Shown here: in pieces, positions 12,627-58,256 of the stretch
How positions within the stretch are numbered: the first letter of the stretch is position 1
How the letters are laid out: the number at the start of each line of letters is the position of its first letter
DNA from: Amphiscolops sp. MND2022
Taxonomy: Eukaryota
Direction: 5' to 3'
Length of the DNA stretch: 64,000 nucleotides
Assembly (NCBI GenBank): GCA_964187785.1
Contig: OZ076409.1
Coordinates: 14,386,001-14,450,000, forward strand
Position numbers and translations under genes: made by a program
The notes under the pieces: generated by a model
What the model was told of the DNA's origin: nothing
Database searches by the model: none
What the model saw: only the letters and a program-made list of their open reading frames with translations

Positions 12627-12876
12627 TGTTGAATGTCATTTGAACTAAATTGAATCTAAAAAAAAACTTGTTCATGCATCTCAAAGTTGCTAAGTCTCAA
12701 ATAATTTGTTCTGAACTATTCTGCCGCCGTTTTAATGTTTGTTCACAATTTGGTCTGAATTAATCTTTGAAACACGTTCTAGTTGAAATTTGACTTCCAC
12801 CCAAGCTTTGAGCTATCTAGCTATAGCACAAGTTAACAATTTAGCAGAGCTGTCTCGCCACAGCATACTACAAACA
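12627..12876 (+). repeat. Bel/Pao 5' LTR
   Basis: Direct repeat of 18840-19089. Confidence 0.97.
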
Positions 12877-12878
12877 TT

Positions 12879-12888
12879 TGGTGACCCG
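12879..12888 (+). promoter_or_regulatory. Primer-binding site (tRNA-Trp-like)
   Basis: TGGTGACCC lies 2 nt after the LTR and is complementary to a tRNA ending in ...GGGTCACCA, as in eukaryotic tRNA-Trp. Confidence 0.65.
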
Positions 12889-12937
12889 AAAGGACATTTT
12901 TCATCGAAACTGGTTAGATCGTTTCTTTTTTTCCTTC

Positions 12938-13528
12938 ATGGTACGAAAAAACATCTACCTGGACAACCATTCTGAAAATCTTATCTTGTCAGATTCGTTA
13001 TTGAAAGAATTTAAAACTCAATCTTTTAACATTTTATCAGTACCTGGCGCACGACCGGAGGATTTCTACTCGTTCTTACCTCCGTTTTCGAGATTTACTC
13101 GCATTGTACTTTTTGTTGGAGGTAACACTTTAGAGGATTTTACTACCAAAGGTGGTCTTCTCCGCCCTCGAAAAGATCCCATTGTTGTTGCACTTGAAAT
13201 AGTTGACTTAGCCTACACCCTCTCGCTACGATCAGACAGTGTTTTTGTTGTAGGCATTCCCCCACGTGGTTATAGTTGTTTACAATCGAAAGTATCTTCA
13301 TTGAATCGATATTTATCGCACTTTTTAGCAACTACAAGTATTACTTTTGTTGGTATTTCTCATTACCTTTATGATTTGAGTTACATTTCTGACGATTTGT
13401 GTCATTTTCTCCCCAGAGCGTTTGCGAAAATCCATAAACTCTTGAACAGAAAAGTTTTAAAAGAAAAGTTTCACCCATCGAAAGCAAAGAAAGGCAAGAT
13501 TATTAAATCTTGCAGCTATCCCTTTTAA
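12938..13528 (+). CDS. SGNH/GDSL-hydrolase (esterase)-like protein, 196 aa, accessory ORF of the Bel/Pao element
   Basis: Intact ORF from ATG 12938 with SGNH blocks in the correct order and spacing: ILSDSLLK (I), SVPGA (II), VLFVGGNTL (III), VFVVGIPPR, DDLCHF (V, DxxH). Confidence 0.8.
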   Translation: MVRKNIYLDNHSENLILSDSLLKEFKTQSFNILSVPGARPEDFYSFLPPFSRFTRIVLFVGGNTLEDFTTKGGLLRPRKDPIVVALEIVDLAYTLSLRSDSVFVVGIPPRGYSCLQSKVSSLNRYLSHFLATTSITFVGISHYLYDLSYISDDLCHFLPRAFAKIHKLLNRKVLKEKFHPSKAKKGKIIKSCSYPF

Positions 13529-13555
13529 AGTTAGTTTCTTATTCGCCTACGCCTG

Positions 13556-13649
13556 CCTGCCTGAAAAGGGCTGTGCAGCAATCTTTTGCGGTAACCTGCC
13601 TGAAAGGGGCTGTGTTGCTGTTTTATTTGCCTGCCTGAAAGGGGCTGAG
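13556..13649 (+). repeat. Three copies of CCTGCCTGAAARGGGCTGWG between the SGNH ORF and gag
   Basis: Copies at 13556-13575, 13595-13614 and 13630-13649. Confidence 0.9.
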
Positions 13650-13679
13650 CAATTTCAACAAATACTCGAATAGTGAGAC

Positions 13680-16600
13680 ATGACAGACACCGAGAGTGTT
13701 GAAAAACTAAAACGAGCTAAAGCCTCGCGAAAGGCTCATGTTGCGATAATTACTCGCAAACAAGCCACTTTTGAGCAAATTGCTGGCAAGACAACCCTGG
13801 AATCAACAGACGAGGATCGAAACACAGCTGAAACTCTTCTAGCGTCCCTCTCCGATAAAAACAAAGTTGTTGATAGCCTTAATCTTGAAATCCTCGATTT
13901 AACTGAAAACACAGATGACCAAATGGAAGCTGAAATTGTTCACCAAGACGAAATAGACATGAAATTGAAAAGTCTCATTCGTAAAATTGAATCGTGGTTG
14001 AGTGCCAATTTTACAGTACAAGAGAGTCCTCCTGAAGACTCGCTGTCGTCAGTCTCCTCTCATCGTGAGAAGAATATACGTCTTCCCCGGATAGAATTGC
14101 CAACTTTCGATGGTGCCTACAAGGATTGGGTACCATTCTATGACATGTTCAAGGGCACCGTTGACAATCATGCATCACTACCTGCAGTGCAAAAGCTATA
14201 TTACTTGAAAGGAGCTTTACGTGGAGAGGCCAAGAACTTACTAGCACATCTTCCCACAACTGACGCTAACTATTCAGTGGCATTGAATCTCCTCCAAGGA
14301 CGTTACGAGAATCAGTTTATGATAACTAAAGCTCATTTGACCAATATATTTAAGATTGGAGCTGTCAAACCTGATCACCCTGAAAGCCTTAGAAAACTGC
14401 TAAATTCGTTTACCGAGAACGAGATGGCGCTGAAGGCTCTTGGCCTCGGCTCGACAGAATGTGATTTTCTGTGGATTCATATTTTATCGGAAAAATTGGA
14501 TACAGTGTCAGCGCGTGAATGGCAATTGAGTAACAAAGATGGTAAAGTAAAGACTTTACAGGAATTTCGCCAATTTCTTGATCAACGTGCAACCGCCCTC
14601 GAAGCGGTTCAGAAGCTGCAATCTACAAGCGTTTCCCCGAAAGAAAGACCAAAAGAGACCAGCAACGGACAGAGTTATGCAACTACTTCAAAAGAATGTC
14701 CTGTTTGAAAGCAATCTCATCGCATCTACCTTTGTCCTAAGTTCACTTCCTCTGAGGTCTCTGTCCGGCGTGAAACAGCCAAAGAATTGCGCCTTTGCTT
14801 CAATTGCCTCCGCCACGGTCACGCAATCCGGAATTGTTCATCGAAAACAGTCTGCCGCACATGTGGTCAGAAACATCACACACTATTACATGACTCGAGT
14901 TTGAAAATACCTCGTCGCAGTGATACTTCAGAGTTTGCTGGTCATCAGAAAGACACCACCAAGCACACCCCATGCACCATGCTTTCGACAGCTATGGTAT
15001 CCATTAAAGATAGTTTCGGCAAGCTTGTTTCATGTCGCGCCTTACTCGATAGTGGCTCGCAGATGAGTTTCATAACACATACAATGGTTGAGAAGTTGAA
15101 GTTAAACAAAGAGATAACCCAATTGAGTCTCAGTGGAGTTGGTGGCATAACCACGAATAAATATACATCCCGTACAACACTCGACCTTGCCACGGATCAG
15201 GGGACCATCGAGGTCAAAGCCTATGTCCTGAAAACAATAACAGGTTGCATTCCTAGTAGACCATTGGATATTTCGAGATTACCCTCATTGAAGCAATACT
15301 ACTTGGCTGATCCGACTTTCAACACTTCTGCTTCTGTCGATCTCTTACTTGGTGCTGACATCTTCGAAAAATTGATAATGAATCAACGGGAGGAGATAAC
15401 CCCGGGTCTTTTCCTGCGCAAAACTATTTTCGGCTGGGTCTTTGTTGGCCAACAAGAGTCGCAGACATCGACGGTGGTCGTGAATTGTCATTTGTCGTTA
15501 GAAGAATCTGTCAGAAAATTCTGGGAGATTGAAAACTTTCCATCGCAAACGTTTCAAACCAAAGAAGAAATCGAATGTGAGGTTCATTTCCAAGAAACTA
15601 CTAGAATTGAAAATGATCGTTTTGTTGTAAAATTACCCTTCAAAAAGCATTCTTCTCTTGGTGAAAGCCTGCCTCAAGCCAAGCGACGCTTCGAATCACT
15701 TGAGCGGCGTTTAGACCAAAATCCTGAATTGAAAGAAAGGTACACAAGTTTCATTGATGAATTTCTTTGTCTTAAACATATGGAAGAAGTACCGGAAAAT
15801 GAAATTGTGAAATCATCATCAGAAGTATATTATCTACCGCATCACTGTGTACTCAAGGAAAGTTCAAAAACGACCAAACTTCGCGTTGTCTTCGACGGTT
15901 CAGCAAAAACCAGCAATGGATGCTCGTTAAACGACAACCTGCTGGTTGGTCCTGTTGTTCAAGATAATTTAATAGCCATCTTGACACGCTTTCGGTTCAA
16001 TGTTGTTGCCTTATCAGCAGACATATCTAAAATGTATCGACAAGTAGTTCTAGATAATCCGGAGAAGGACTTCCATAGAATTCTCTGGCGTGAAAGTAAA
16101 GATGGACCACTTCGCCACTTGCGAATGAAACGCGTGACATACGGAATAGCCTCTTCGGCTTTTCATTCTACCCGATGTTTAAAAGAGATAGCGAACCGCA
16201 CAGAAAACTCAATTGTGAGAGATTGTTTGAATAGATGCTTCTACGTCGACGATTTTCTTGGCGGAGCTCCAACAATTGATGATGCGAAATCTTTGTTAGA
16301 CAATCTTGTTAAAGAACTTCGACGTTATGGCTTCGATTTGAGAAAATGGGCGTCAAGTCATACTGAACTAATCTCTGAGCTGCCTGTCGAAATGAGAGAA
16401 AATGCTGACTCACTGGAACTGTTTTCGGAAGAATACAGAATCAAAGCTCTGGGTATTTCCTGGCATCCCAATACGGATATGTTTTTTTTTCAATGTAGAT
16501 CTGGAGGAAATCACGGAACCAACAAAACGAGCTCTTTTGTCAGACTCGTCAAAAATATTCGATCCTATGGGTTGGGTATCGCCTGTAATCATTCTTTTCA

Positions 16601-18783
16601 AAAGTCTTGTTCAGCGCACATGGGTGCAAGATTTGTCATGGGATGACAAACTTCCCGATGACCTGGTTGAGCAGTGGTACAGAATACGTAAGGAACTGGA
16701 GTATCTTAACACGATAAAAATTCCTCGTTGCGTTCGGCCTCCAAAAACAACCGCACTTGAGCTCCATGTCTTCTGTGATGCCTCAGAGATGGCTTATGCG
16801 GCAGTGGTCTACATAAGAGCTCGGGGTCCAACAGGTATTTCTTGTAAACTTTTGACTTCTAAGACTAAGGTTGCCCCTGTGAAAGCTCTGTCCATGCCTC
16901 GTCTTGAGTTGTGCGCTGCGACTCTGGGAGCCAATCTTACAAATTCTCTTCGTCAAACACTTGAAGTGTCTTTAGTAACTGCTTGGACCGACTCTACAAT
17001 CGTTCTTAATTGGCTTTCCAAGCTTCCCCGCACTTGGAATACGTTTGTTGCAAACAGAGTTGCAACTGTGCAGGAAGAAATTCCACGCAATCAGTGGAAG
17101 TACGTTCCAAGCAAGGATAATCCTGCTGACATGGCTTCACGTGGATTATTAGCCTCCGAGATCATAGAAAATGCGCTTTGGTGGAATGGACCGGAGTGGT
17201 TGTCAGTTGATGACGCTGAATGGCCTCTGACGCCCTCGACTGAAGAGACACTTCTAGAGAAACGATTGAATAAAAGCATATGCACCGTTGTTACACAGAT
17301 TCTGCCGTTGAATATTGAAAAATTCTCTTCTTTGCAGAAATTATTTCGAGTTTTCGGCTACGTTCTAAGGTTCATTGCGCAAGTGAAAGTGCGGTGCGGT
17401 TTTAAAATTCAATCTTCCGCACAAGTATCAGACAGCTTAACTGCTATTGAACTTGGAGACGCCTCTTATCTATTAGTGTCTTATGAACAACAAAAGCTAT
17501 TGAAGGAAGAATTTTCGTTACTTCAGCAGGGAGGCGAGCTTCCCAAAAACAGTCCCTACATCAGCCTATGTCCCTTCTTTGACAAAGACTTCAATGTGAT
17601 TCGAGTAGGTGGTCGCCTAGCGAACTCTGATTACGACTCTTTGAAAAAATTTCCTCTTCTCTTACCGAAAACCTCCTCTCTGGTTCCGCTAATCATTAGA
17701 TATTTTCATGAAGCAACGCTTCATGGCGGTGATAGTATGACTCTTGCGGCTCTCCGAGAAACATATTGGATCATAGGAGTCAGAATAATGATCAGAAAAA
17801 TCATCAAAAATTGTATCAAATGCTGTCGTTTTTCCCTGAAGTCAACAACGCAACAGATGGCAGATCTGCCACTTGAGCGGATAACACCATCCCGACCATT
17901 TTTGCAAAGTGGTTTAGATTTCGCAGGACCTTTGAAAGTCAAATGTTCCGGAAAAGTTTATATCGCTATTTTTGTTTGTTTGTCAACTAAAGCCGTGCAT
18001 ATGGAACTTGTCGGTAACTTATCAAAGGACGCTTGTATTCTGGCCTTGAAGCGTTTCTTTGCCCGAAGAGGCACACCGTCAAAAATTCTCAGTGATAATG
18101 GGACTAACTTCATTGGGGCAAGGAATGATCTTCTCAAGTTGAATGAAGTATTTGAATCAAAAAACAAAGATTCTGTTGTTTCCTTCGCTGAACAACGCGG
18201 AACGGAATGGGTAACAATTCCACCAAGAGCTCCTCATTTTGGCGGTATATGGGAAGCAGCAGTGAAAAGTATTAAACATCATCTTCGTCGTGTGGTCGGT
18301 ACACAAATTCTCCACTATGAAGAGCTTTCTACTATCTTATGTCAAATCGAAGCAGTCTTGAACTCCAGACCCTTAGTCCCGCTTTCTAGTGACCCAAATG
18401 ACTTGCAAGTGATTACACCGAATCATTTTTTAATTGGGGGATCGCCAAACGAACCCGATAGGCAAGAATCAAAAGTTCCACTCAACTGCCGCTACAGACT
18501 TCTCCAGCAGATCCAAAAGGACTTCTGGAAAATGTGGAAGAAAGATTATCTGGGCTCACTTCAGATAAGGAAAAAATGGGCACAGAGTTCCGCAAATCTC
18601 AAAATTGGAGACCTAGTTCTACTGGCAGACGATGATTGTCGTGCAATGCAATGGAAAATTGGTCGAATTAAAGAAGTATATACCGGAAATGATGGACTTG
18701 TACGAGTTGTTAAAGTGAAAACTCAGCAATGTGATTTAATCCGGCCAATAGTAAAACTTCGAAAACTCCCAATCTCTTGTTGA
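13680..18783 (+). pseudogene. gag-pol: Bel/Pao gag-pol polyprotein (Gag, Zn knuckles, protease, RT, RNase H, integrase) with two disablements
   Basis: Motifs: Gag LPRIELPTFDG, knuckle CFNCLRHGHAIRNC, PR ALLDSGSQ, RT FYVDD, RH FCDAS, IN GLDFAGP/SDNGTNF/GIWEAAVK. Lesions: in-frame TGA at 14706-14708 (CPV*KQSHRIYLC) and a +1 T in the T9 run at 16482-16490. Confidence 0.93.
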
Positions 18784-18825
18784 CTTTAACGCGCCCTCAC
18801 TTACAATTTTCTTAATCATACTGAT

Positions 18826-18839
18826 CAAGGGGTGCGGTA
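18826..18839 (+). promoter_or_regulatory. Polypurine tract of the Bel/Pao element
   Basis: CAAGGGGTGCGGTA immediately precedes the 3' LTR. Confidence 0.7.
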
Positions 18840-19089
18840 TGTTGAATGTCATTTGAACTAAATTGAATCTAAAAAAAAACTTGTTCATGCATCTCAAAGT
18901 TGCTCAGTCTCAAATAATTTGTTCTGAACTATTCTGCCGCCGTTTTAATGTTGGTTCACAATTTGGTCTGAATTAATCTTTGAAACACGTTCTAGTTGAA
19001 GTTTGACTTCCACCCAAGCTTTGAGCTATCTAGCTATAGCACAAGTTAACAATTTAGCAGAGCTGTCTCGCCACAGCATACTACAAACA
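18840..19089 (+). repeat. Bel/Pao 3' LTR
   Basis: Direct repeat of 12627-12876, followed by CTAG. Confidence 0.97.
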
Positions 19090-28934: not shown

Positions 28935-29647
28935 TGTAACGTCCACCAGTCAACACCAAATTTTCGATGAAAAATTCGATCAAGAACCAAAAAATGTGCG
29001 AATCAAAATGGCCGACCTGGCAGGTCCTTAAAGCCCATAAAAAATGAAAGAGAGAACACGTGAACAAGAAGAACGACAAGAGATGATAAAGAAGTAGGCG
29101 ACTGACGACATGAAGATCCACACGGGACAGAATTCGAAGAACGCTACCCGGTGCTATGTCATCCCTGGGAAAGCAGAGCCATTCTAGAACTACATGACTG
29201 GATCCCCGAAAATCTACAAACAGTAACTCTATTTCCACTCGGGGCTTATCCCCCTTTATTTTGTTAATTTATATCAGAGCGTTTTGTTATTTTTCCCATG
29301 CCTGACCTTCTAGGTCGGCATTTCATGCCCATAACTGTCGAAATGAGATTTTTCGGATAAACACCTTTTTGGACCTCGGAAGTATGTAGGGGATAGCAGG
29401 AACGCGCTAAAAACCTTAGGATACGTTTTTACAGGCTTGTGGGGCGTGTCCGGACTTTGAGAGTGCCGGCACGTCGCCTCGGAGCTCTAATTAGAGGAGT
29501 CTCCTTAGACGTTAGAAAAGTCCCCCATGGAGACCATTTTGGGATCAAAAACTAGTGTCTAGGTATGTAGTAAGACAACGGTCTCCTGTTTAAGCATCCT
29601 AGGCATTGTCCCTCTTCCTAGATGTGCGCCGCTAGCCGGACGTTACA
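28935..29647 (+). repeat. 5' LTR of the giant Gypsy element
   Basis: Direct repeat of 47320-48032 with a 10-bp terminal inverted repeat. Confidence 0.98.
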
Positions 29648-29663
29648 TCTGGAATAGTTTTTA

Positions 29664-29680
29664 TGGCGACCACAGAGGGA
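29664..29680 (+). promoter_or_regulatory. Primer-binding site (tRNA-Arg-like), 16 nt downstream of the LTR
   Basis: TGGCGACCACAGAGGGA closely resembles the reverse complement of the 3' end of animal tRNA-Arg(TCG) (TGGCGACCACGAAGGGA). It is identical in the inverted copy at 55864-55880. Confidence 0.75.
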
Positions 29681-32656
29681 TAATTTTCCTTACCGCGTCC
29701 TGCGAGGAGCAACTCCTGCTTTCCGGCCCTGAAAGGTCCGGATCTAGGAGAAGCTTTTGGGAGAGTCCTAGATTGTTTTTATTGCTTTATTCTAGCCCTT
29801 TGGGCCTTATATTAGTGTTTTTCCTGCGTTTCCTGCATGTTTCCGAGGTCCCTAGCCTGAAAAAGACAGTTTGAAACGGTGTACCCCCTTGTACCTTATC
29901 TGTACTCATTAAAAGAGCTATTCCGGCTTATCCGGAACGTGTTTTAACGGGTTTTCCAGCTTCTTTTCAGCTAATTAGCAATGTACAGGGACTGCGAGGA
30001 CGGTTTGTGAAGACCCGAACTAGCTGAGTGCAGGACTGCAGGTGCTTCACGTCATAGCCTCTTCCTCCCCACCTGGTGCCGATTCACCGAAAATAGCTGG
30101 GTTATTTCGTTCCCTTTACGTTTTCTAGCCCCAAATTAGTATTCCCAGGCCTGTTTTTGCATAAATTAACTGTGAATAATACCCACAGGGTATTTACATC
30201 AGTTATTTTAAGGACTTGAGCTCGAAAACGCCAAAAATGACACTAATAACAGCTCAAATATCGAAATTTCCCGTTTTGAAAGCCAAAATTTTATAGAATT
30301 GTTAACGGCCTGTGGGAATACCTGAAAAACGTTCCGTTGGACCTACCAGGTCGAGAACAAAAGTTTTTGTTGGGCTATTTTTCAAGAAAACATGAAAATT
30401 TCAGCGATTTTTGTTCAAAAATAGGCAAAATTGGCCATTTTGACCAATTTTGGTAAGGGCGAAGCCTTGGGCGTTTGTTCCCAAGCCTCTTAAAGGGCCC
30501 AAAAAATTCTGTTGTTGTGCTTGGTAGTACGCAATACTACTACCAAGACGGTTTTTGAACACCCCCAATATAAATTGAAGTTTTAACACCACTTTTCTTT
30601 CATTAAAATAGACCTGAGTAGAGGACCCCATAGACCTGAGAGCTATAACATCAAAAATAATAATTGAAAGAACCCCACTCCCCTAAATAAAGCAGTTACA
30701 CCTTCCTACTGTACTGTTGAAACCATCTCGAGCCTCTGGGAACCGAAGAATAAAAAGTTCCTAGGGAAAATACGTGTTTTTCATAGGTGTTCCCAGAGTG
30801 TCCAAGGTGTAACCTAAAACCAATTTCGAGAGACCCTATCTGGAACCTGCCAGGTTTCGCTCGCTTATTTTCTGTTAGTAGAGAGTACTAGATTACCAAC
30901 GCTGAAAACCGCGAGTGATTCCAACCAGTGGTTGCCGAGAAATAGCCAAAAACGTGTTATTTTTGTGACATTTTCGGAACACTAGAGTAGTGCTTCCAGT
31001 ACAGGTCGAAATCTCTCCTACCAGGAGTAGCCCAAAACGGATTGCACCATCGTGTAGCACGCAAAAAGTTACGTTAGTGGTGTAATTTTCGTAGTGCTAC
31101 CATTATTAGTGATCGAGAAATCTTAGCCGCAGTTTTGCTCAAAAATGATCCGAAAATGTCGAAAAAATTGAATTTTAGTTGAGCATAGTACAATACCTCG
31201 AAGGTACCCCAGTACTAAAATTCTTGCATTTTCGTGCCCACGGCATTAGATCACGACGATTTGTGCAATTTGAGCAGCCGGCTACTACCCAGCTTAAAGA
31301 AATTGACAATTTTGTGAATTTTAGCCCCTGAAAGTGGCATACAGGGTACATCATAGTTTTGTCGACTCGGATTGCGAAATATTGACCTGGGCACCCTGCT
31401 AACTTATTTTTCTGTTACGTGGGCATAATTCACGCTCGCATACAAAATTTCAGATAGCTAGGAGGCCTAGAAGGCGAGTTTGACCACTTTTTGCGAAATT
31501 CGCGACATAGCCAATTTCTTAGTGAACATTGTTAAGTGGCCGTGACACACGCAGAATCAATTTTAACGCAATCGGAAGCTCGTTCCCCACGATTCAGCTA
31601 GTGCACTAGGCGGTGTGAAATTTTCAGGTCGCTAGCACCACTAGAAGTGATTTTCACCTTCCCCGGAGGTACTGCTTGATGAGAAAAACAAGATTTTGAG
31701 TAAAAATTAATAGAAAACCCAAGCATTCCCAATCCTGATACACCCCATTCAGGGCTGAAACCACCTGTTTAACGCATCGAGCAAGTCCCACACGCCTTAC
31801 CGAACCTATAAAATCCATATAAAGCTAGCCCCAAGATCAACGATCTTCCACTAAACGCTCTACGAGACCAAAAGACGGTAACTCCAAAAATTGAAATTCA
31901 CTTCTTTCCCGCCGCTAAGGTCGCCTAGGTGCAATTTACTCGCCATAACCATCCCGACTCTACGCCTCGCATACCCTGAGGGTGCGAGAGTGCGCCTGAG
32001 AATATCAAAACAATTACAGACCAGGTTTGCGGAACGCGTAGAGAAACTAGAACAAGGACAGGGAAAATCATCCATATCGTTGTAACCCCTTCACCCACGA
32101 GCAATAAAGCCATAGACCAGGTCATCACTCGATACTTAAACCACGCACTCCCAATCAAACCCCAGATTATTTCCAATCCATTGTCCACCCATTGTCCCCA
32201 AATCAGCCCACCCATTGTTCCCAAACTCCTCAAAAAAAAAAAAAAAATTTTTGTTGAAGAAAGTCGAACCTTCTAGGTGAGGAGAAAACAGAGGAAATTT
32301 TAGTTAGCCACACCTGCGATAGTGTGCCTAGTGCACTCCACAGATGCAGGAAGCAATTCACGCCCATTTAGCAAATCTTTACCCCAATACAAGAAAGACA
32401 AGTGACAAGGCGCGCTAAATGGCCTAGTCAGTCAGCTACTCAGTGCAGTTTAGATAATAGCCTTTTGAGTTACTTAGTCAAAGCAAACCCTCCTCATTCC
32501 ATCATCTACCACTTGTTTCGTGGGGGAAGGAAGTAGAGAAAAGCAAAAAACAAAAAACAAAAAAACAAAAAAAAAATTTTTGTTACCTTTAATTTTGTCG
32601 ACTATATAGTGGAAGCTTCACACGCAGTGGAAGCTAAAATATTACATTTCGTGGCC

Positions 32657-35600
32657 ATGGAACAACGCGAGACTAACGCCACCATGAGCGACTTCCATGC
32701 CACCAACCCTTTCGGAAGAAGAGCGGAAACCACAACCGAAGAAAACGAATGTAGATTAGATTCAGCCATAGCAGACATAATTTCAGAAGCTATGTCTGAC
32801 TTCGTACCGAGCCAGGAACAAAACGCAGAGATAGCCGTTGCCACTAGCCAGCCTAACTCCTCGCGAGCCTCCCCCGATAGCACCAATCTACCGGATAATA
32901 CTGAGAACACCACGCAAAGAAATACATGGCCTCCGCTGGAAGTCACTGACTACAGCTTGGAAAACTGGCCAAACTCCAACCAAGGGCCCACCAGTGAGCC
33001 CAGCATTGTTGATACCCCCAACGAACAAAATGGCACTCCAATGACTCCACGGGCGGACCCACGGACGGCGGAAGTCGAAAGGAACCCCCTGGGTTCCCAG
33101 GAGATGATCAATAGCGTAGGCGGGAATCCCTTCCGAAGCGGATATGCGCTACCGGAAGCACCGGCGAAAACGTCGAACAGGCCAGTGGAGAACTCGAAGA
33201 CGGACATAACAGAGAATCCGTTAAGATATGTTTTTCGAACGCCACCCTCGGTGACGCCAAAGATTAACTATGCGAATGCAAGTCGAACATCTCATACGCC
33301 AGACTCTCAAGCTAGCGCCGACACCAATCTTGACTCAACAATAACCAAAGCAAGGAAGGAAATGCAAACAGTTCGGGAAGACTTTCAGAGTAGTCTGGCT
33401 CAGCTAGCTCAAGTCCAGACGAGGCTGGCGAGGGAAAACAACGAACATGAGATGCGCGCCGACATGATAATGAGGGACATGGACGAGCTACGAAAAGGTC
33501 TGTTGGAAATGCAAGCGGAAGGGCGACAAAATCAAGGTCGACTGGAAGCGTCAATGGCATCTCTCAATGATCTGATTAAACAGAGAGAAACTACAGCGGA
33601 CGCTCGCATGGCCGAGATGTCTGCAATAATGAGAGAAAGAGACCGCCAAGCGGATGAACGCATGAAAGCAATGACAAACACGATGCAGCGCCGCGACATA
33701 GACTCCAATGTCCGCATGACGGACTTGATGATGGCAATGCAAGATTTGACATTGGGAGTGAAAGCAATCGTGTCGCAAGCCCCCGCGCAGCAAGCACAAA
33801 CGGCGCCGCGGATTCCCCAAAAAAATCAACAGACCGAAATGCCATCTACAAGCGAAGCTCCCCAACCTCATTATAGGACGGTGGCACAGCACACAGTGGA
33901 GCCTCCTAGGCCTCCAAAACTAGTGCCACCCGCAACGTACAGGCGTGACCTGTCTAAAGCTAGCAAGATGGCTAAAGTAACCCACACGGAATCACGAGAC
34001 GCAGGTACGGACCCAATGACAGACCCGCCGTCGTTTGACCAGTACGCTCGCGGAACATCAACCTCCGGCAACTTTCATTCCGCCGCCGACGAAACGAACA
34101 CCCGCAGGACCAGCTACTATACGGCCGATTCCAGCGCAGCATTCCGCCCACCTGCGCGACCGCAGACGTTCAGAGATTTCGTTCCGCGGCCAGTGGCCAC
34201 CAGTACGCAGCGTAAGATGACAAACAAGCGGAATCTGGAACAAGGCAAAGGCGAACATAGCGATATTGAAGAAATGCCCTCAATGACAGAAGAGACCCCA
34301 GACACGCCAAGAACTACCCAACGACAAGCACTAGCGGAAGCAATATCTACGGCCATGTCTAAAGGCTTGGAGCCGTTGCTCGCCGCCAAGGAATCTAAAA
34401 ACAAGCCCACGAAATATAGAGGAACCCGAGACGGAAACGCAGATGGATGGATGATGTTGATGAAACGCCATTTGGAAAAAGCACACCCCAAGGCGACCCC
34501 CCTCGATAAAGCGTGGACAATAATTGAGTATCTAGAGCATGAAGCCAGAGATTACATCACAAATAAGTCCGAAGCCGAGAGGGACACTGACGAAAAAGTA
34601 TTCGCGTTGCTGGCGCGTCGCTTTGGAACAGGTTCCAGCAAAATCCACATCCAACAGCAATTTAGAACCCGCAACCAGAATAGCGAGGAGGACTACATGC
34701 AATACCTTGACGCCCTCGAAGGCCTGCGTAGTCAAGGTTACCCCAATGAAGAGGTGACAGTTCGTCGATACGAAATCATGCAAAGATTCATTGAGGGAGT
34801 ACGCAACTTCGAACTAAAAAGGAACCTCGCGCTAATGTATGCACCGGAACAATACGTGGAAACCCCGCCAACAGTGGAAGCCCTCCGCTTCACAGTACAA
34901 CAATACTTACGCATGCGAGGCTCAACTCGTTCGGACAACTACCCAATGATGCCCCCTCCACAACAACAAGCCAACATCCAACAACCAAATCAGTCTCCAG
35001 TAGCACCCGCGCCTGCCCAAAAAATGCAACAACAACAGCCTCCCCAACCAGCAGCATACCAACAACAACCCATGCCACCGGCAGCCTATCGACAGCAACC
35101 CCAAAGAGCGTGCTTCAACTGCGGAGACCCATCGCACTTCGTGGTGGACTGCCCCCTGAAAGACCGTGCACGGAAGCCGGTACAACAGCAAGTGAACTCC
35201 TGTCACACGAACCCGACAGGTAGTTGGGTGTGCCCCTCCCAGCCACATGGCTTGAACTATGATGTTTTCCCAGCATCCCTACCAACCCAAGGCACAGTTG
35301 CCTTCTGCATTAATTGCGGCCGTACTGAGCACTCGGCGTCAGAATGCATGGCCTCGGAGCAAATGAATCACGAAGAACAAATCCGTGCAGCGTGGTATGC
35401 TCCTTCACCAAGTCGATTCGATGGCCTGAGCCAAGACGACCAAGTCCGGGTAATATCAGTAGCGGAAGATGGGGGTCCCTCCCGACCTGTAGTAGTCACT
35501 TGTGGCGAGAAACAAGTACTCACCACACTAGAGGCACCCGCCCCAGATTGCACAGAGACACTTATCTCGATACACTTGCTTCTCTCGGCCGAACAAAAAA

Positions 35601-38600
35601 CGCGACCCACGCTGACGCTATCGCAACTAAAGGAGGAATTATGCAGAAACGTGAACTATACTATCGCAGCGCGACCGCTCCCACATTTCGCGAGAGAAGA
35701 CGAAACGAAACTGGCCCCAATACAGAAAGTTAAGACCGTTTCTCCGGTGCCGGTAGCCATTAACGTAGACGGTGTAGACATGAAATTTGACGCTATCGTA
35801 GTCTTAGAAGGTCACTTCCCTCAGGGATTGTACTTGGGCCGCCAGGAGTTACGATGTTATAACATCGGAGTGCAAGATGCCCAGGGGGAGGCTCGTATTG
35901 ACGAACGGGCATCCCTGGTGGTTGCCTTTGGCAACACGATCCAGGAACCAATACCCTTGTACGGGATGATAGACACCGGTTCCGGTGTCTCGATTCTCTC
36001 CCTCAAAGCCTATCAAAAAATTGCATCACCCCACGCATTAAGCCTCCTACCATATGACATCCAACTGTATGCCGCCAATGGTAAAACCATCAACACCATC
36101 GGAATTGCCGAAAATGTTAGCTTCCAGTTGGGCGGATATACCCTCCGAACCAATTTCATAGTCATTGCCGATCACCTAGGCGCGGAAGACTTCCTACTTG
36201 GCAGAAACTTCTTGCGCACTTACAACGTTCTCGTGGACTTGACGGCCATGAGGGTCACAATACGCGACACCAAAGCGCCACGCCACTTCAAACCCGTCCA
36301 TGAGGTAAGTGATCATGAGCCATCCCTAGTGATATCCACCGAAAAAGTAGTCCTAGGCCCTTACGAGCGTAAGCTAGTACGAGCCCAAGTTATTTCTCAA
36401 AAGCACAACGAGTACCTTTTCCGAAACGTAATGATTCGCCCCCAGGGGGTATATAAACGATCCCCCTTTGTTTCAGAAGATACATTGACGTCTGTTGGAG
36501 ATGAAGGCATTGTCTTCATAGCCCTACGAAACACTACCCCCTCTGAAAACGTAACCATTCAAACCAAAACTGTCCTCGGTAAGGCAGAACCTACAAACTT
36601 TGTGTTACTACCTGTGGCTGCCGACACGGCAACCGAAATTGATAAACCTTTGTTTGAACAAGTTAATAAAGTTTATACCGAAGAGTGGTTAAACGAAACG
36701 AGTTCCGAATATAGTTCTTTTGCTCAAAACTTCTTGTCCTCTACTGAGATATCTGAAGAAGGATTATCGGAAAGCGAGAAGCGTGCTCAGACTGACCCAC
36801 AGTTACTAAAACCTATACCAGGTCCAGACCTCTCCTCCATCCTTTCTTCATGGGGGGAGGGAGCGAGAGATCAACTAGCAAGCGTCCTGAGCGAATACGA
36901 TGACCTTTTTATGAAACATAAAGCTGACATAGGGAGATGCAAAATAGCGAAACATCGTATAGAACTAGAGCCAGAAGCTATCCCACATAGAGAAGGCGCT
37001 CGGCGCATGTCCCCAGATAAGGCAGCAAAGGCTAATCAAGAGGTGCGAAATCTACTGGCCCTTGGCCTAATTCAACCCTCCTATTCACCGTGGGCAAGCG
37101 GAATAGTCATGGTCAAAAAGAAAACAGGCGAACTTCGCTTCTGTTGCGACTTCCGACCGCTCAACGACGTAACGGTCAAGGACGCGTTCCCATTGCCCAG
37201 GATTGATGAAAGTCTATCCCGGATAGGCAATGCAAAAATTTTCACAAGTATTGACCTAGCGTGGGCCTTCTGGCAGATACCGCTAAAGAAGCGCGATAGA
37301 AGGAAAACAGCATTTGCCTGTGAACTGGGCTTGTTCGAATGGCGACGCATGCCCTTTGGGCTATGCAATGCATCGGCCACATTCCAGCGCTCCATTACAC
37401 GTGCCCTGCAACGGATCCAGCAACGACACGGGAGTGTCGTCATGGCTTACATCGACGACATAGTTATCGCCACGGAAACCATAGAAGACCACATCGTACG
37501 AATCAAGGAAGTATTCGAGTGTCTCCGAGAGGCTGGATTCAAGATGCGTGCCGAGAAATGTGACTTCATGCGCACGGAGACAAAGTACCTGGGGCGAGTG
37601 GTGTCCTCGGAAGGCATCAGACCAGACCCCGAAGCAATAGTCAAGATCCAAGAATGGATGCCCCCGAGAAACAAAGAGGAGCTTCAGAGCTTCCTAGGAT
37701 TCGCAAACTATTACCGAGACTTTGTACCATTCCATGCAGCCAAAGTACAACCCCTGCAGGAGTTGCTCAAGAAGAGTCAGCATTTCCACTGGGAAATAAA
37801 ACACCAAGAAGCCTTCGATGCAGTAAAGGAAGCACTAGCAAACGCGACCGCCTTGGCAGCCCCAAATGAAGACGGACGGTTCGTGCTCGACACCGATGCT
37901 AGTGCGGTAGCGATAGCTGGAATCCTGCACCAGGAACAGGAACACAATGGGAAAACCATTTTACGGCCAATAGTCTTCGGGAGCAAGTCCTTAACGAAGA
38001 CGCAGCTGAACTATGGAGCACCCAAGTTGGAAATGTACGCAGTATTTTACTTCATAGAGAAATTCCACTCATACCTCGCAGGCCGAGAGTTCACGCTCCG
38101 TGTGGACAATCAGGCCCTGTCATGGCTTAAAACGTACTCCATGGACCAAGCCATGATAGGTCGCTGGATAGCCCGTCTGGATCAATACAACTTCAAGACG
38201 ATCCACCGACCTCGCACACAGCATCGAAACGTGGACGGCCTCAGCAAACGGACCAACGACTATGTGCACCGAGAGAAAATCCTTGAGAAGTTACCGGAAG
38301 TGAGCGAAGGATTCAACTTCATGACCAAAGAAGACTATGAAGCACTCCCCACCGTGCCATACTTTGACAAACACGGACGCCCAATACCAAACCATCCAGA
38401 GCTCCCACCGGAAGCTCGAGCCCAACTCCCACTGCTGTATATCTTGGGAAAAAGGCCCAAAACGAGCTTGCAAGAACCCCCGGTGGATGATGCCCCATGG
38501 TACCCCCAAATACAATGGGAAGCGACTCCAACCACAGATGAGGATCACCGACCAAATCACATCCTCAGCATCACGACCGAAGTGCCACCGGCACGCCTAG

Positions 38601-41600
38601 ACACTGGAGAGCCTGATCCCATGCTTGAAGGGATGCCACCCGAATGCCAAAGACAAGCCCACGCCCTTAGAACAATCGGGACGGAGCTGCACGAACACTT
38701 TCTGACTAGACGTGGCCTCAAGGACCTGCACCTAGCACAAAATAGGGATGTACACCTCCTAGCGCTGAAGAAACTCATGAACGGCGAACCACTGGAAGAC
38801 ACAATGTTCCCCGAAGACGTACAGGACTTCGCGCGACGCTACTTCCATCAAAAAAAAGACCTCCTCTTCCTGAACCCAGACGACATCCTCTGTGTCAACT
38901 ATGTTCCGCAACAACGTGCGCTGCACGTGCGACCGTGTATGATAGTCATGCCACAACTATATCAACACGAGATTCTGTATAGGGCACACGACGAATCGGG
39001 ACATCAAGGCGTAGGGAAGGTGCTAGCAAGAGTACAAGAGCGGCACACCTGGCCGGGCATCAAGCGTGACATAGTCAATCACATCAAGCACTGCTTAACT
39101 TGCCAACAAACAAAACACCCCGCCGGGAACCCCTGCTACCCCTTGCAGAACATCAACAGCAGCAACTTCAACGACTTAGTACAATTCGACCACCTCAAAC
39201 TATGCAAGACCGAATCGGGGAACACCGGTCTCTTGGTCATGATAGACCACTTCACGAAATTCGCCGAGGCTATCCCGTGTGCCCACGACGAATATGATGC
39301 TCAAACCACAGCTAAGATCATCCTTAATAAATGGTTTGCCAGGCACGGCACCCCAGCACGCATGCAATCCGACAATGCCACGAATTTCACAGCTGAAATC
39401 GCACAGGAGCTAATGAAAGCCTCGCAAGTCACTAAAGTGACATCCACTCCAGCGCATCCTCGAGGGAATGGACTCGTGGAAAGGCAGAACCGAACGTTAC
39501 TCACACTGCTCAGAGTCTACACTTCGCGACGAATGCAGGATTGGGATGAGCACATTGATGGAATCCTCGGTGCGTACAATTCAACTAGACACGCAACCAC
39601 GGGATTCTCTCCCTATATGCTCCAACACGGAGCCGAGAAATCCATTCCCTTGTCATTCATCTACCCAGAATTTGCTGCGCGAGGATTCGATTCCAAAGAA
39701 GAATTTGTAGAACATCTTCTAGCCAGACAACAAGAAATCCATGAACTTGTCAGAAGAAATACACACCAAGCACAGCTACGGCAGAAGCTGAAGTTTGACC
39801 GCCACCTGAAGGCCAAAGCGCACGCCGTAGGCGATGCGGTGTGGGTATTCTGCCATATCATACCCAAGGGTGGCACCCGCAAGCTGATTCGCGCATGGCG
39901 CGGACCCCACAAGGTGACTGACGTGTTACAAGACGGACGATTATATGTGTTAGACACAGGCCAAAAGGTCCATTACGAAAGATTAAAAAAGCACGTGCCT
40001 GCCCCTTGGGACTGGGCCGCACACCAGCCCTTTGGGCCGGATCAAAACGTAGCCATCATTGCTGATCCGTACGTAGAAGAAAGCAATGAAGAGATAGCGT
40101 CCGACATCTCCCAAGATTCTTTCCTACCGGAACAACTTCCGGAAGCATCCTTCGAAATGGAGCCAACAGGATCGATTCCACCTCGTACCATTCAGACTCG
40201 TACCCAAACGGCACTCGAGCAAGGAATACCCCGAAGAAGATTCAGCCACTTCGGATACCCCTCTAACTCAGATTCCGAAAGAGAGGAAAATGAGCCGCCG
40301 GTCCAGAGCCCACCACCGCCAGTAGTGTTCCCCGACTTGGACGACCTAGAACCACTATACTCCGACCAGGAGGAAATTCAGCCAGCCGTACCTACAAGTC
40401 TGATACCATCACCCTCAGGGACCTCAGCCCCCCTACTATCCAATCCGTCCCTAACGGACACCCTGAGTAACTTTCCCTTGTTTGGCCCCCAATTGGAGGA
40501 CCCAATCGACCCGATAGAAATTAAACCAAAGTCAGAAACTGAGAACGAAGAAGAGATAACCTATCGCAGTCCAAGCCATTGCTCAACACAACCCGATACC
40601 ACGAATCGCAGAGGACGGCCTCGAGGCCGACCACCAGGTCGAGGACGACCCCGCGCTATACCATCCAGTAGAACCACGACATCGTCGCGAACTCAAACCG
40701 CACGATCCAGAAGAGGCCCTAGGACAAGAATGAGCACTCGTGCACCCCCTCGAAAACTAGACCGAGCGATGACTCTACCAGAAATACCCGAAAGCCAACA
40801 ACCACCAGATGTCCAGGACTCAGAACCGAGACCACCATCGCGAACATCACGATATCAACTGCGAGCTAATAGAGCACCACGATATAAGTGTGGAACCTGT
40901 GGTTCCCGCAACTGTAGTTGCGTCAAGCATCTAACTCGCGATTCACCGGACAACCGATTGGCCCGGGGAGCGGTAGTCCCTGCCAGGGATCTCTTGATGG
41001 CCAGGACACATTATCACCCACAACATGAGATCTTAACCGTGCAAGCCCAGCGAGAAAAATTGGAGACACCCCCGCTAGTACACCATTTGATCATCACGGT
41101 GGAAAAAACTTTCACTAGTGTGGAGCGAGAAGTGATACCACCGCTGGAAGAAACACTCAAAGCAATGCACGCGACATCTCCCTCCGACTGCCCGACTTAC
41201 CGATTCAAAGAATGGACACCATCCCATCGAGGCGGTCTAGAATTCACCCTACATGCCATCATACCGCCTTTGCCACCCTCGATGACGTTCGGCGAGCTAG
41301 CGAAAGAGGATAGTAGCCCGGAGATGATTCGCTGTATCACTGCACACCAACTGTGGGAGAAATATCACATTGCCTCCCCGCCGGGAGACATATATCAGCC
41401 CACCAATGGATGGTGGCTACTTGTCACCTCTCTAGACGCAACGACATTGGTATCTCCCACAACTTTACTGATGTGCTTAGAAAGCTTGCGTACGGTAACC
41501 GAACCTGAGAACACGCTTTGTTTCCACATGGCCGATATTTATCGTGGCAAGTTCCTAAGCCAACATTGGCTACAATTAATAGCGGTCGTCTTCTGCCGAC

Positions 41601-42325
41601 AGGCGAAGATACACTTCTTGGATCGACAATTTTATACACCGGAAAAACCCGTCACAGTTAGCGAAGCACTCTCGATAGTACACGATTGGTCATCTACAAA
41701 CTTGGGAGATAGACCTCTACGCCGAACCGTCTGGGAAGACCGAAAGGCAATCTTGCAGCATTTGGCACCCCGACCCACCGATGATCAGAGCAAAACCACC
41801 GGCAAATGGCTCATAACCCAGCCCAAAACCAGACCGAATTACTTACCTTGGATAAGTTATGACAATACAGATATCCTGCAGGCACCTGGCACTGTGATAC
41901 TATGCTGCCCTGCGGATTTGCTCTCTTACTCTGCCACAATCCGTTACGTCATTCGCGAATACGGTCAAGAAAACATATTTCGTCTAAGACCGTCAGTTGG
42001 CACCGCAATTCGCTTAACCCGCTCGCCAACTGCACCCTGGAATAACGAAATCTTCCTTCTATGTACCAGAGCATCGAACAAGCATCCACTCTTACATGAA
42101 GTACTCCATGCGTGTTTGACAAATTTGATAACCCAGCTCCATCGAAACCACATTACCAGAATCCACTTGCCCATCTATGATCCTGAGCGATCGATGAACC
42201 TCCTTCCAGCCTGGTACGCCACACTACGCGACCACTTTGCAGACCACAACATTACAATAATTTTGCACGATCGCGTCTATGTCACGATAGCATCGATTAC
42301 CTCTGCCAATTTTGGCGGTAGTTAA
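32657..42325 (+). CDS. gag-pol: Gag-Pol polyprotein (~3222 aa): coiled coil, capsid-like Gag, two CCHC knuckles, pseudo-protease plus protease, dUTPase-like fold, RT, RNase H, integrase, AT-hooks, macrodomain-like C-terminus
   Basis: Single open frame, ATG in GCCATGG context. Knuckles CFNCGDPSHFVVDC and CINCGRTEHSASEC; PR MIDTGSG...FLLGRNFL; RT SPWAS, FCCDFRPLN, MPFGL, AYIDD; RH LDTDAS; IN HDESGH...CLTC, QFDH, SDNATNF, NGLVERQN, WRGPH. Confidence 0.97.
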   Translation: MEQRETNATMSDFHATNPFGRRAETTTEENECRLDSAIADIISEAMSDFVPSQEQNAEIAVATSQPNSSRASPDSTNLPDNTENTTQRNTWPPLEVTDYSLENWPNSNQGPTSEPSIVDTPNEQNGTPMTPRADPRTAEVERNPLGSQEMINSVGGNPFRSGYALPEAPAKTSNRPVENSKTDITENPLRYVFRTPPSVTPKINYANASRTSHTPDSQASADTNLDSTITKARKEMQTVREDFQSSLAQLAQVQTRLARENNEHEMRADMIMRDMDELRKGLLEMQAEGRQNQGRLEASMASLNDLIKQRETTADARMAEMSAIMRERDRQADERMKAMTNTMQRRDIDSNVRMTDLMMAMQDLTLGVKAIVSQAPAQQAQTAPRIPQKNQQTEMPSTSEAPQPHYRTVAQHTVEPPRPPKLVPPATYRRDLSKASKMAKVTHTESRDAGTDPMTDPPSFDQYARGTSTSGNFHSAADETNTRRTSYYTADSSAAFRPPARPQTFRDFVPRPVATSTQRKMTNKRNLEQGKGEHSDIEEMPSMTEETPDTPRTTQRQALAEAISTAMSKGLEPLLAAKESKNKPTKYRGTRDGNADGWMMLMKRHLEKAHPKATPLDKAWTIIEYLEHEARDYITNKSEAERDTDEKVFALLARRFGTGSSKIHIQQQFRTRNQNSEEDYMQYLDALEGLRSQGYPNEEVTVRRYEIMQRFIEGVRNFELKRNLALMYAPEQYVETPPTVEALRFTVQQYLRMRGSTRSDNYPMMPPPQQQANIQQPNQSPVAPAPAQKMQQQQPPQPAAYQQQPMPPAAYRQQPQRACFNCGDPSHFVVDCPLKDRARKPVQQQVNSCHTNPTGSWVCPSQPHGLNYDVFPASLPTQGTVAFCINCGRTEHSASECMASEQMNHEEQIRAAWYAPSPSRFDGLSQDDQVRVISVAEDGGPSRPVVVTCGEKQVLTTLEAPAPDCTETLISIHLLLSAEQKTRPTLTLSQLKEELCRNVNYTIAARPLPHFAREDETKLAPIQKVKTVSPVPVAINVDGVDMKFDAIVVLEGHFPQGLYLGRQELRCYNIGVQDAQGEARIDERASLVVAFGNTIQEPIPLYGMIDTGSGVSILSLKAYQKIASPHALSLLPYDIQLYAANGKTINTIGIAENVSFQLGGYTLRTNFIVIADHLGAEDFLLGRNFLRTYNVLVDLTAMRVTIRDTKAPRHFKPVHEVSDHEPSLVISTEKVVLGPYERKLVRAQVISQKHNEYLFRNVMIRPQGVYKRSPFVSEDTLTSVGDEGIVFIALRNTTPSENVTIQTKTVLGKAEPTNFVLLPVAADTATEIDKPLFEQVNKVYTEEWLNETSSEYSSFAQNFLSSTEISEEGLSESEKRAQTDPQLLKPIPGPDLSSILSSWGEGARDQLASVLSEYDDLFMKHKADIGRCKIAKHRIELEPEAIPHREGARRMSPDKAAKANQEVRNLLALGLIQPSYSPWASGIVMVKKKTGELRFCCDFRPLNDVTVKDAFPLPRIDESLSRIGNAKIFTSIDLAWAFWQIPLKKRDRRKTAFACELGLFEWRRMPFGLCNASATFQRSITRALQRIQQRHGSVVMAYIDDIVIATETIEDHIVRIKEVFECLREAGFKMRAEKCDFMRTETKYLGRVVSSEGIRPDPEAIVKIQEWMPPRNKEELQSFLGFANYYRDFVPFHAAKVQPLQELLKKSQHFHWEIKHQEAFDAVKEALANATALAAPNEDGRFVLDTDASAVAIAGILHQEQEHNGKTILRPIVFGSKSLTKTQLNYGAPKLEMYAVFYFIEKFHSYLAGREFTLRVDNQALSWLKTYSMDQAMIGRWIARLDQYNFKTIHRPRTQHRNVDGLSKRTNDYVHREKILEKLPEVSEGFNFMTKEDYEALPTVPYFDKHGRPIPNHPELPPEARAQLPLLYILGKRPKTSLQEPPVDDAPWYPQIQWEATPTTDEDHRPNHILSITTEVPPARLDTGEPDPMLEGMPPECQRQAHALRTIGTELHEHFLTRRGLKDLHLAQNRDVHLLALKKLMNGEPLEDTMFPEDVQDFARRYFHQKKDLLFLNPDDILCVNYVPQQRALHVRPCMIVMPQLYQHEILYRAHDESGHQGVGKVLARVQERHTWPGIKRDIVNHIKHCLTCQQTKHPAGNPCYPLQNINSSNFNDLVQFDHLKLCKTESGNTGLLVMIDHFTKFAEAIPCAHDEYDAQTTAKIILNKWFARHGTPARMQSDNATNFTAEIAQELMKASQVTKVTSTPAHPRGNGLVERQNRTLLTLLRVYTSRRMQDWDEHIDGILGAYNSTRHATTGFSPYMLQHGAEKSIPLSFIYPEFAARGFDSKEEFVEHLLARQQEIHELVRRNTHQAQLRQKLKFDRHLKAKAHAVGDAVWVFCHIIPKGGTRKLIRAWRGPHKVTDVLQDGRLYVLDTGQKVHYERLKKHVPAPWDWAAHQPFGPDQNVAIIADPYVEESNEEIASDISQDSFLPEQLPEASFEMEPTGSIPPRTIQTRTQTALEQGIPRRRFSHFGYPSNSDSEREENEPPVQSPPPPVVFPDLDDLEPLYSDQEEIQPAVPTSLIPSPSGTSAPLLSNPSLTDTLSNFPLFGPQLEDPIDPIEIKPKSETENEEEITYRSPSHCSTQPDTTNRRGRPRGRPPGRGRPRAIPSSRTTTSSRTQTARSRRGPRTRMSTRAPPRKLDRAMTLPEIPESQQPPDVQDSEPRPPSRTSRYQLRANRAPRYKCGTCGSRNCSCVKHLTRDSPDNRLARGAVVPARDLLMARTHYHPQHEILTVQAQREKLETPPLVHHLIITVEKTFTSVEREVIPPLEETLKAMHATSPSDCPTYRFKEWTPSHRGGLEFTLHAIIPPLPPSMTFGELAKEDSSPEMIRCITAHQLWEKYHIASPPGDIYQPTNGWWLLVTSLDATTLVSPTTLLMCLESLRTVTEPENTLCFHMADIYRGKFLSQHWLQLIAVVFCRQAKIHFLDRQFYTPEKPVTVSEALSIVHDWSSTNLGDRPLRRTVWEDRKAILQHLAPRPTDDQSKTTGKWLITQPKTRPNYLPWISYDNTDILQAPGTVILCCPADLLSYSATIRYVIREYGQENIFRLRPSVGTAIRLTRSPTAPWNNEIFLLCTRASNKHPLLHEVLHACLTNLITQLHRNHITRIHLPIYDPERSMNLLPAWYATLRDHFADHNITIILHDRVYVTIASITSANFGGS

Positions 42326-42656
42326 GAGCACGTCTCGCTCTCTAATTGGCAGATCAGGCCACTGGCCTTTTGCATTGCCTTTACTAAATTCGAAGCACCT
42401 TAAAATTTCAACAAAGCCGCGCCGATAAGCGCAAATTTTAGTCCTGACCACTGGAAACTTTTTAACCTTATGTTTGTGTGTTCGTCCTAAAAAGTTTAAC
42501 TGCCCACCCGTCTATGTGATGTCTTATCTCCAACTGTGACCTGTTTTTCAGTTTTGTCCTGTTGCCTCGCCTCTGCGCGGCCCCCCTACTTATCACGCCA
42601 AATCAGTCTTGCCATCACAATCTTCGGTGCTAAACATTCCTTTATCATCGTTTCCA

Positions 42657-46751: not shown

Positions 46752-47311
46752 AGGAGTCCTCTGGACCCCCAAGACTGTTAGAACACAATTGAGCATAAAG
46801 GACCCTATCATCAATGTACTGATGCCAATTCTTGATTTTAGTTGTGCTACACCATCTTGCTGGTGCTGAAAACTTTCAGTGCAATAAACCTTAATTCCTG
46901 AGTTTTGTTTGATGTATATTTTACTTTGCTACCAATGCAACAATGCAATATAGCTACATCCCCTGGGTGGGTCCCGGTTCGGTGCCCTCCCGTTTTGATT
47001 TGAATTTGAAACTTCTACCAAGCCCAAAAGTTGTTGTTACTCACTTGGCCGCGCAGGGGCCCAATTTTAGAAAAAGAAATTTTAACTTGAACTGAGTAAT
47101 TAGTGAAAAAACCTTTTTTTTTAGAAAAAATCCGACTGTATAGTTTTTAACCTAAAAATCAGTGCTTTTTAAATTCGATGGCTTTAGGGTGCTAGACATG
47201 CAGTACTGAAGCGAACAACATAGCTTTGATGTAAGACCTTTTCTGTGAATCTCAGAGTACCCTTTGGGTGCGAGCATCCTCTCGTTTGCCGAGGACGACA
47301 AACTACGGCCC

Positions 47312-47319
47312 GGGGAGGA
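47312..47319 (+). promoter_or_regulatory. Polypurine tract of the giant Gypsy element
   Basis: GGGGAGGA abuts the 3' LTR. Confidence 0.75.
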
Positions 47320-58050: not shown

Positions 58051-58253
58051 TGTAGAGGTGAAAGTTACATAGTCTAGACAGACTTAATTGAACATTCAAG
58101 TACCTGCCTATGAACTATAAAGTACATCCTCATCATTTAGTAGTTGCCTTCGATGCTATATGGATAGATACTGATACTCTAGTACTCTTTGCTATAGAGA
58201 ACATTCTCTTCTTAATTTGAACTTCTTAATTCTATCTTTTCTGCGAGTCTACA
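58051..58253 (+). repeat. 5' LTR (203 bp)
   Basis: Matches 63811-64000 with one mismatch seen. Confidence 0.95.
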
Positions 58254-58256
58254 ACA

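Follow-up and report, generated by a model that had tools for sequence, protein, structure and literature searches.

The 64-kb window (64,000 nt in full) that we analysed here carries, at 12627-19089, a complete Bel/Pao element that is 6463 nt long and has no env. Between its primer binding site (PBS)-like site and gag lies a free-standing ORF for an SGNH-type protein. The features of the element, in the order in which they occur, are as follows.

12627..12876 (+): 5' LTR, 250 nt, TG...CA, preceded by the target-site duplication CTAG
12879..12896 (+): PBS-like site by sequence, beginning TGG directly behind the 5' LTR
12938..13528 (+): SGNH esterase ORF, free-standing, 196 aa
13548..13654 (+): 18-nt spacer motif in three copies, each a predicted hairpin
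13680..18783 (+): gag-pol, with DUF1759 capsid, zinc knuckles, protease, RT, Peptidase_A17/RNase H region, integrase and DUF5641
18826..18839 (+): PPT-like purine-rich tract by sequence, ahead of the 3' LTR
18840..19089 (+): 3' LTR, 250 nt, followed by CTAG

The Bel/Pao element with the esterase ORF is young and complete; its two LTRs have 3 differences over 250 nt, and the 4-bp target duplication CTAG is found on both sides. Its long ORFs match the Pfam domains DUF1759, DUF1758/aspartic protease, RVT_1, Peptidase_A17, rve and DUF5641, which form the Bel/Pao set, and the class was assigned from this set together with the domain order and the layout. The Belpaoviridae have LTRs of 0.2-1.2 kb, an element length of 4.2-10 kb, a PBS and a PPT (PMC8742986), and the window element resembles them in LTR length, in its size of 6.46 kb, in PBS and PPT, and in the order of the gag-pol domains. 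The Bel/Pao identity given in a first-pass annotation of this DNA is thereby supported. The PBS of Belpaoviridae is complementary to tRNA-Arg or tRNA-Gly (PMC8742986); no tRNA genes were found in the 64-kb window to match against the PBS-like site. In gene content, the element departs from the Bel/Pao elements as described, which have gag, pol and, in some, env (PMC8742986; PMC3118150), by its extra esterase gene. The word "esterase" is absent from the main text, as far as available, of PMC8742986, PMC3118150 and PMC12440569. The ORF starts 59 nt past the first base of the PBS-like site and ends 151 nt ahead of the gag ATG at 13680. Two lesions interrupt gag-pol, and both were confirmed in this assembly: the zinc-knuckle region of gag has a stop (14706-14708), and pol changes frame at nine consecutive T (16482-16490), possibly through an error of sequencing or assembly.

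Elsewhere in the window are two elements of the Ty3/gypsy type. One (28935-48032, +) spans 19 kb, looks intact and is bounded by LTRs of about 713 nt; its gag-pol is long-extended and measures 3222 aa, and its second ORF (42657-46751), of 1364 aa, has no Pfam match. Residues 462-710 of this second ORF had an SGNH-like look, for which hhalign gave no support (probability 0.2%). An inverted partial copy of the LTR of this element, about 91% identical, lies at 55754-56186 (-). The other element (58051-64000, +) has several broken frames, and its 3' LTR runs off the window.

As the first-pass annotation had described, the 196-aa ORF at 12938-13528 (+) is intact and carries the motifs SDS (Ser20), PGA (Gly37), GGNT (Asn63) and DLCH, the latter within DDLCH (Asp153, His156). 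The SGNH domain begins at about residue 11 and fills the whole ORF. The protein has a pI of 9.6 and a Lys-rich tail, with 10 K/R within the last 30 aa, and no signal or transmembrane segment is predicted in it. Alone, the window protein (P0001) matches none of the Pfam families at E<=1 and no PDB sequence. In the family, Lipase_GDSL_2 is matched at E<=0.1 by 24 of the 38 aligned members (best 1.5e-8). The profile search proposed earlier as a check thus gave no hit for the single protein, and hits at this threshold for part of its family. The proteins of three related loci introduced below (L001-L003) reach 20-28 bits against Pfam Lipase_GDSL/Lipase_GDSL_2, where the gathering cut-off is 32.9. 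Among PDB sequences, the family profile matches ZfL2-1 best (4c1b; E 2.6e-4 and 1.3e-4 in two runs), with a lead of only 1.4-2 bits over PAF-AH and PatB.

An AlphaFold model built on 38 sequences (pLDDT 90.9, pTM 0.88) replaced an earlier one from 19 close sequences, the last third of which was poor (pLDDT 71.6). Against SGNH hydrolases, the model reaches Z 17.9 with an rmsd of 2.5 A over 164 aligned residues, and its top-ranking matches are SGNH proteins throughout. Foldseek agrees on the SGNH fold (E 1.3e-7). A language-model search, taken as a lead only, returned GDSL clusters at 0.93, a label that about half or fewer of their members carry. Conservation was counted over 42 family members chosen as near full length. 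The Ser-Asp-His triad and the oxyanion Gly/Asn named in the first-pass annotation are all retained (S20 39/41, G37 40/42, N63 39/42, D153 39/41, H156 39/42; 93-95%), and all five occur together in 31 of the 42; the median column identity is 0.24. Ranked by conservation, the catalytic residues fall within the top eight columns of the family, and the five residues align with the active-site columns of ZfL2-1. The columns of ZfL2-1 H191 and S228, mapped by hand count on the alignment, are here Phe59 (F in 35/42, His in 0) and Val105 (Ser in 1/42). The window protein has Tyr149 at a column where 26/42 have His. From the family profile, the AlphaFold model and the five residues, which are conserved at 25-60% identity, the ORF product is an SGNH-fold protein under long-term constraint. 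With its full Ser-Asp-His triad, it is likely an active esterase or lipase.

The ORF was proposed to be a 5' accessory gene of its family, and the other copies bear this out. The 90%-identity cluster of the window protein has 20 members, on long contigs, and the 14 other listed copies of the ORF comprise nine of full length and five that are truncated or shifted. The intact ORF beside a lesioned gag-pol had also been offered as evidence of selection. This argument does not hold, because two lesions in 5.1 kb leave a 591-nt ORF clean at P=0.79, and the five damaged copies speak against it as well. Sister subfamilies of 23, 32 and 8 members are 54-62% identical to the window protein. The window clade has at least eight clusters (support 100/100), in which frame, length and triad are all kept, and the window protein is its longest branch (0.69). 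Relatives of the window protein number 18 at 50-98% identity and, among 50% representatives, 90 at E<=0.001, none of them named.

Translated flanks link the copies to the same position. In three of the 14 listed copies and in P0003, an N-terminal extension is the translation of the PBS-to-ATG stretch of the window, which indicates that these copies adjoin the same PBS. The 18-nt spacer motif appears in translation, twice each, in the read-through proteins P0055 and P0069 of the 54%-identical, 32-member subfamily, which therefore likely has the same leader. For the Bel/Pao lineage with the esterase behind the PBS, DNA was read for only one copy, and the sisters are linked to it by these flanks; judged from the sequences, the esterase ORF is a fixed multicopy accessory gene of this lineage. 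The esterase family also includes deeper multicopy subfamilies (P0082, P0106, P0122, P0123, P0100, P0211 and P0137). No longer fused forms were found among 8000 candidates, which is weak evidence, and a later search brought three longer SGNH proteins, taken as the tree outgroup.

A metagenome scan yielded four loci (L001-L004) out of 137 candidate stretches. No relative was found in metagenome contigs with a close alignment as query, nor in viral contigs or prokaryote genomes. In the LINEs L001 (240-5018) and L003 (222-4061), the esterase is a separate first ORF, followed by an ORF1 of 283-312 aa and an APE-RT ORF2. L001 ends in (ACT)n, its esterase has a 90% cluster of 32 members, and L004 is a damaged copy of the same family with the same three-ORF order. 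Even the closest LINE copies share no more than about 30% identity with the window esterase. Kinship with LINE esterases, as suggested in the first-pass annotation, therefore stands in part: the nearest relatives with a known context are in retroelements, LINEs included, but there the esterase has an ORF to itself, ahead of a normal ORF1, and the family does not have the His/Ser pair that marks ORF1 esterases of LINEs. The N-terminal extension of P0142 and P0206 was considered as a translated PBS and dropped; it matches the 5' end of L001. Between esterase and ORF1 of L001, predicted stem-loops are repeated at 862-923 and 1038-1096 (z -3.6 and -3.0), in two copies with a conserved base and a variable top, and the same spacer of L003 (922-1071) has three predicted stem-loop copies 59 nt apart. 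Rfam gave no match for the spacers or loci, with one chance match at E 0.64.

The fourth locus, L002, is of another kind. It has a Bel/Pao integrase end (DUF5641, E 3.4e-8; 48% to that of the window), then TGTTGG at 171, an esterase ORF that runs from 865 to 1461, and, at 1541, a PBS-like site. This is the form expected of a collapsed LTR holding a gene, and the L002 esterase thus apparently lies inside the 1.37-kb LTR (171-1540) of another Bel/Pao family. Identity by codon position between the window and L002 ORFs is 0.41/0.55/0.32, which also speaks for constraint. In five clusters that are 56-67% identical to the L002 protein, 16 of the 39 listed members are on a contig of the same length as that of another member; such pairs are 96-100% identical, and twice both members are shortened to the same length. 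Elsewhere this pairing was seen for 4/59 in the window clade (91 and 94% identical) and 0/46 in the remaining clusters (Fisher P=1.2e-4, or 0.004 when restricted to the three full-length clusters). With equal size taken as the same contig, and counted among the up to 15 members listed per cluster, the pairing independently agrees with what an esterase in both LTRs of L002-like elements would give.

In a tree of 48 rows, the LINE copies and the L002 group fall into one clade (100/99). The window clade lies outside this clade, joined to it at 94/86, a value that is not starred, and the smaller tree leaves the join unresolved. The placements point to two captures, or repeated exchange among retroelements, as the likely history. 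Because the window clade lies outside the clade that holds the LINE copies, the tree does not orient the capture, and the origin from a LINE or a host gene that the first-pass annotation had put forward is not borne out. A single clade for both Bel/Pao placements was mildly rejected (AU p=0.034; group picked post hoc, simple model). A short Cys-rich C-terminal motif occurs in 17 of the 42 members (P0073, P0074, L001, L002 and others), with none in the window clade, whose C-terminus is a Lys-rich tail instead; it is a possible candidate for a metal site or a lipidation site.

The stretch between the esterase start and the next gene is nearly free of ATG. Relative to dinucleotide shuffles, the window has 1 ATG in 739 nt from the esterase start to gag (9.0 expected), L001 has 0 in 930 nt up to the next ORF (6.2) and L003 0 in 868 nt (5.8), while L002, counted to the first ATG behind the PBS, has 0 in 719 nt (6.5). 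In each of the four the depletion is significant (P<=0.002), ATG is the most depleted of the 64 trinucleotides in all four, and gag, pol, ORF1 and ORF2 show no ATG depletion. The 5' part of the L002 LTR is likewise ATG-poor (4 vs 13.3). Within the esterase coding region alone, the window has 1 ATG vs 6.3 expected (P=0.007). None of the four ORFs, including that of the window, has an internal Met, and internal Met makes up 0.48% across the esterase family vs 1.2-1.5% in the window gag-pol. Much of the depletion signal consists of these missing in-frame Met; taken by themselves, out-of-frame ATG show significant depletion in L003 (P=0.014) and L002 (P=0.001), and none in L001 (P=0.23) or the window (P=0.40; 1 vs 1.8).

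The sole AUG between the esterase start and gag (13371..13379, +) belongs to an out-of-frame two-codon mini-ORF in a weak context. The esterase AUG itself has U at -3 and G at +4. A pyrimidine is found at -3 of 4/4 esterase AUGs and a purine at 3/3 identified downstream starts, the L002 gag start being excluded. Three predicted hairpins of -10 to -16 kcal/mol are on the scanning path in the window spacer and, like the ATG-poor 5' part of the L002 LTR, count against leaky scanning. The AUG depletion in four elements indicates that ribosomes likely reach gag by leaky scanning past the esterase, and suggests that the esterase ORF has long co-evolved with the element RNA. Leaky scanning through the AUG-free ORFs I and II is known from RTBV and badnaviruses (PMC5902531), which are similar in having about 700-900 nt without internal AUG, a sub-optimal upstream start and the main polyprotein downstream. 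They are, however, plant pararetroviruses in which scanning was shown by experiment, whereas the window element offers a sequence signature alone.

The same accessory gene could be combined with another route to gag: ribosomes might reinitiate after termination or enter internally at a site made up of the hairpins, or splicing might remove the esterase from the RNA. Predicted hairpins are indeed repeated between the esterase stop and the next start, three times in the window, three in L003 and two in L001, and non-LTR elements use a hairpin with termination-reinitiation (PMC5902531). None of these routes requires an AUG-free esterase coding region though, the window stop and start are 151 nt apart without overlap, and the spacer hairpins may perhaps be packaging signals. 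We consider another route unlikely.

Our preferred reading, with a probability of about 0.6, is that of a fixed Bel/Pao accessory gene encoding an SGNH-fold protein that is likely active and likely translated via leaky scanning. As a part of this whole explanation, one type of cistron would have been exchanged among unrelated retroelements, as the first ORF of LINEs, as an internal leader of Bel/Pao and within a Bel/Pao LTR. Part of the scanning ribosomes would initiate at the esterase AUG in its sub-optimal context, and the remaining ones would go on as far as the gag start, over 739 nt in which a single weak AUG occurs. Since leaky scanning would proceed from the 5' end of the genomic RNA, this single RNA would yield both the esterase and Gag-Pol. 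The small, basic, cytosolic product could then bind anionic membranes and hydrolyse acyl esters, in analogy to the ZfL2-1 LINE esterase, which slowly hydrolyses short p-nitrophenyl esters and binds anionic liposomes (PMC3905857). This analogy is imperfect, because the H191/S228 double mutation blocked activity in ZfL2-1 (PMC3905857) and those two positions are Phe59 and Val105 here. In the last and weakest step, the esterase might aid the assembly of particles or RNPs on membranes, or their movement with them, in an element without env.

Behind another route to gag, three further readings follow in this order: a deacylase directed against host defence, a binder without catalysis, and a passive passenger. 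In the first of these, the esterase would counter host defence or modify a host or element protein, for example by acetyl or palmitoyl removal, unrelated to membrane traffic. It is separate from Gag and ORF1p and hence need not be a particle component, it is common to elements with unrelated life cycles, and deacylation is named among the options in PMC3905857. Against it, no target protein is known. The ZfL2-1 esterase did not act as a histone deacetylase but bound liposomes (PMC3905857), and the basic tail of the window protein suits membrane or RNA binding, which leaves such a deacylase improbable. It is very unlikely that the SGNH fold serves without catalysis to bind RNA or lipid, in the manner of the Oskar OSK domain: the high pI, the missing H191/S228 pair and the presence of Oskar OSK among the structural matches (Z 13.3) would suit it, but catalytic residues among the best-kept columns are not expected of such a module. 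Least credible of all is a LINE 5' fragment or host retrocopy that landed in one element and now decays, since the truncated or shifted copies and the deviating composition (T 0.35 in the ORF vs 0.25-0.28 in gag-pol, GC 0.37 vs 0.43) are set against a clade that keeps frame, length and triad across at least eight clusters at 54-62% identity, the low identity to the closest LINE copies, flanks without LINE remains, poly(A) or duplication, and the fact that single-copy decay after insertion is expected for any element gene.

SGNH proteins in transposons are known from CR1, L2, RTEX and Penelope-like elements (PMC3905857; PMC4120745; PMC13343379), and as ORF3 from LTR elements of rotifers (PMC5408684; also PMC6431247, PMC5718144). 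An esterase in an LTR retrotransposon thus has a precedent in Vesta ORF3 of rotifers (PMC5408684). Like the window element, Vesta, found in bdelloid rotifers, is an LTR retrotransposon with a stand-alone SGNH ORF and intact catalytic residues (PMC5408684). Its GDSL/SGNH ORF3 is common to the unrelated Athena Penelope-like elements and is described there without coiled coil or TM. Vesta differs in that ORF3 lies downstream of pol, is typically expressed from a spliced RNA and belongs to rotifer-specific lineages (PMC5408684), whereas, compared by description, the esterase here lies ahead of gag or in the LTR, in Bel/Pao, and with an AUG-free leader. No Bel/Pao element is named in the available text of PMC5408684.

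ZfL2-1 ORF1p (PDB 4c1b), which represents the CR1/L2/RTEX/Penelope-like class, has the SGNH fold, the triad and the 5' position in common with the window esterase (PMC3905857). There, the esterase is ORF1p itself, behind a coiled coil and with the H191/S228 pair (PMC3905857), whereas the window esterase is a bare domain without coiled coil or that pair, in an LTR-type element. In the related LINEs L001 and L003, which are still non-LTR elements, the esterase stands ahead of a separate, ordinary ORF1. SGNH hydrolases are also accessory genes of Ngaro-like elements (Hydro-SGNH ORF, PMC9210276) and of Helitrons (texim, PMC4021074), which belong to other element classes; the ORF follows the recombinase in Ngaro, and texim is an intron-bearing captured gene. 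The finding is real and a variation on the known transposon-borne SGNH esterases, in places for which we found no earlier report. Plant Ty3/gypsy elements are known with additional ORFs in front of gag. The literature searched contained no report of an esterase that belongs to a Bel/Pao element, precedes gag, lies within an LTR or forms a separate ORF before a LINE ORF1; Repbase or supplements could hold one.

A more far-reaching idea, which we regard as doubtful, is that an AUG-purged plug-in esterase cistron circulates among the LINEs and Bel/Pao elements of one animal lineage, and could precede whichever structural gene follows and still leave it unblocked. It would have entered Bel/Pao twice, behind the PBS and into the LTR, and would let retroelements that have no envelope reach membranes, and pass from cell to cell, by remodelling lipids.

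Ever since SGNH esterases were described in LINE ORF1, it has been an open question why unrelated transposons repeatedly capture them. In LINEs whose ORF1 protein is itself the esterase, what the enzyme does can hardly be told apart from RNP assembly. Here the gene codes for 196 aa, stands free and accompanies an ordinary gag or ORF1, and with three such architectures a role of the enzyme itself can be tested directly. The element in the window extends the gene content of Bel/Pao, and its relative in L002 is a likely case of a protein gene within an LTR. The AUG-free upstream cistron, finally, is a signature by which genuine 5' accessory genes of retroelements can be recognised.
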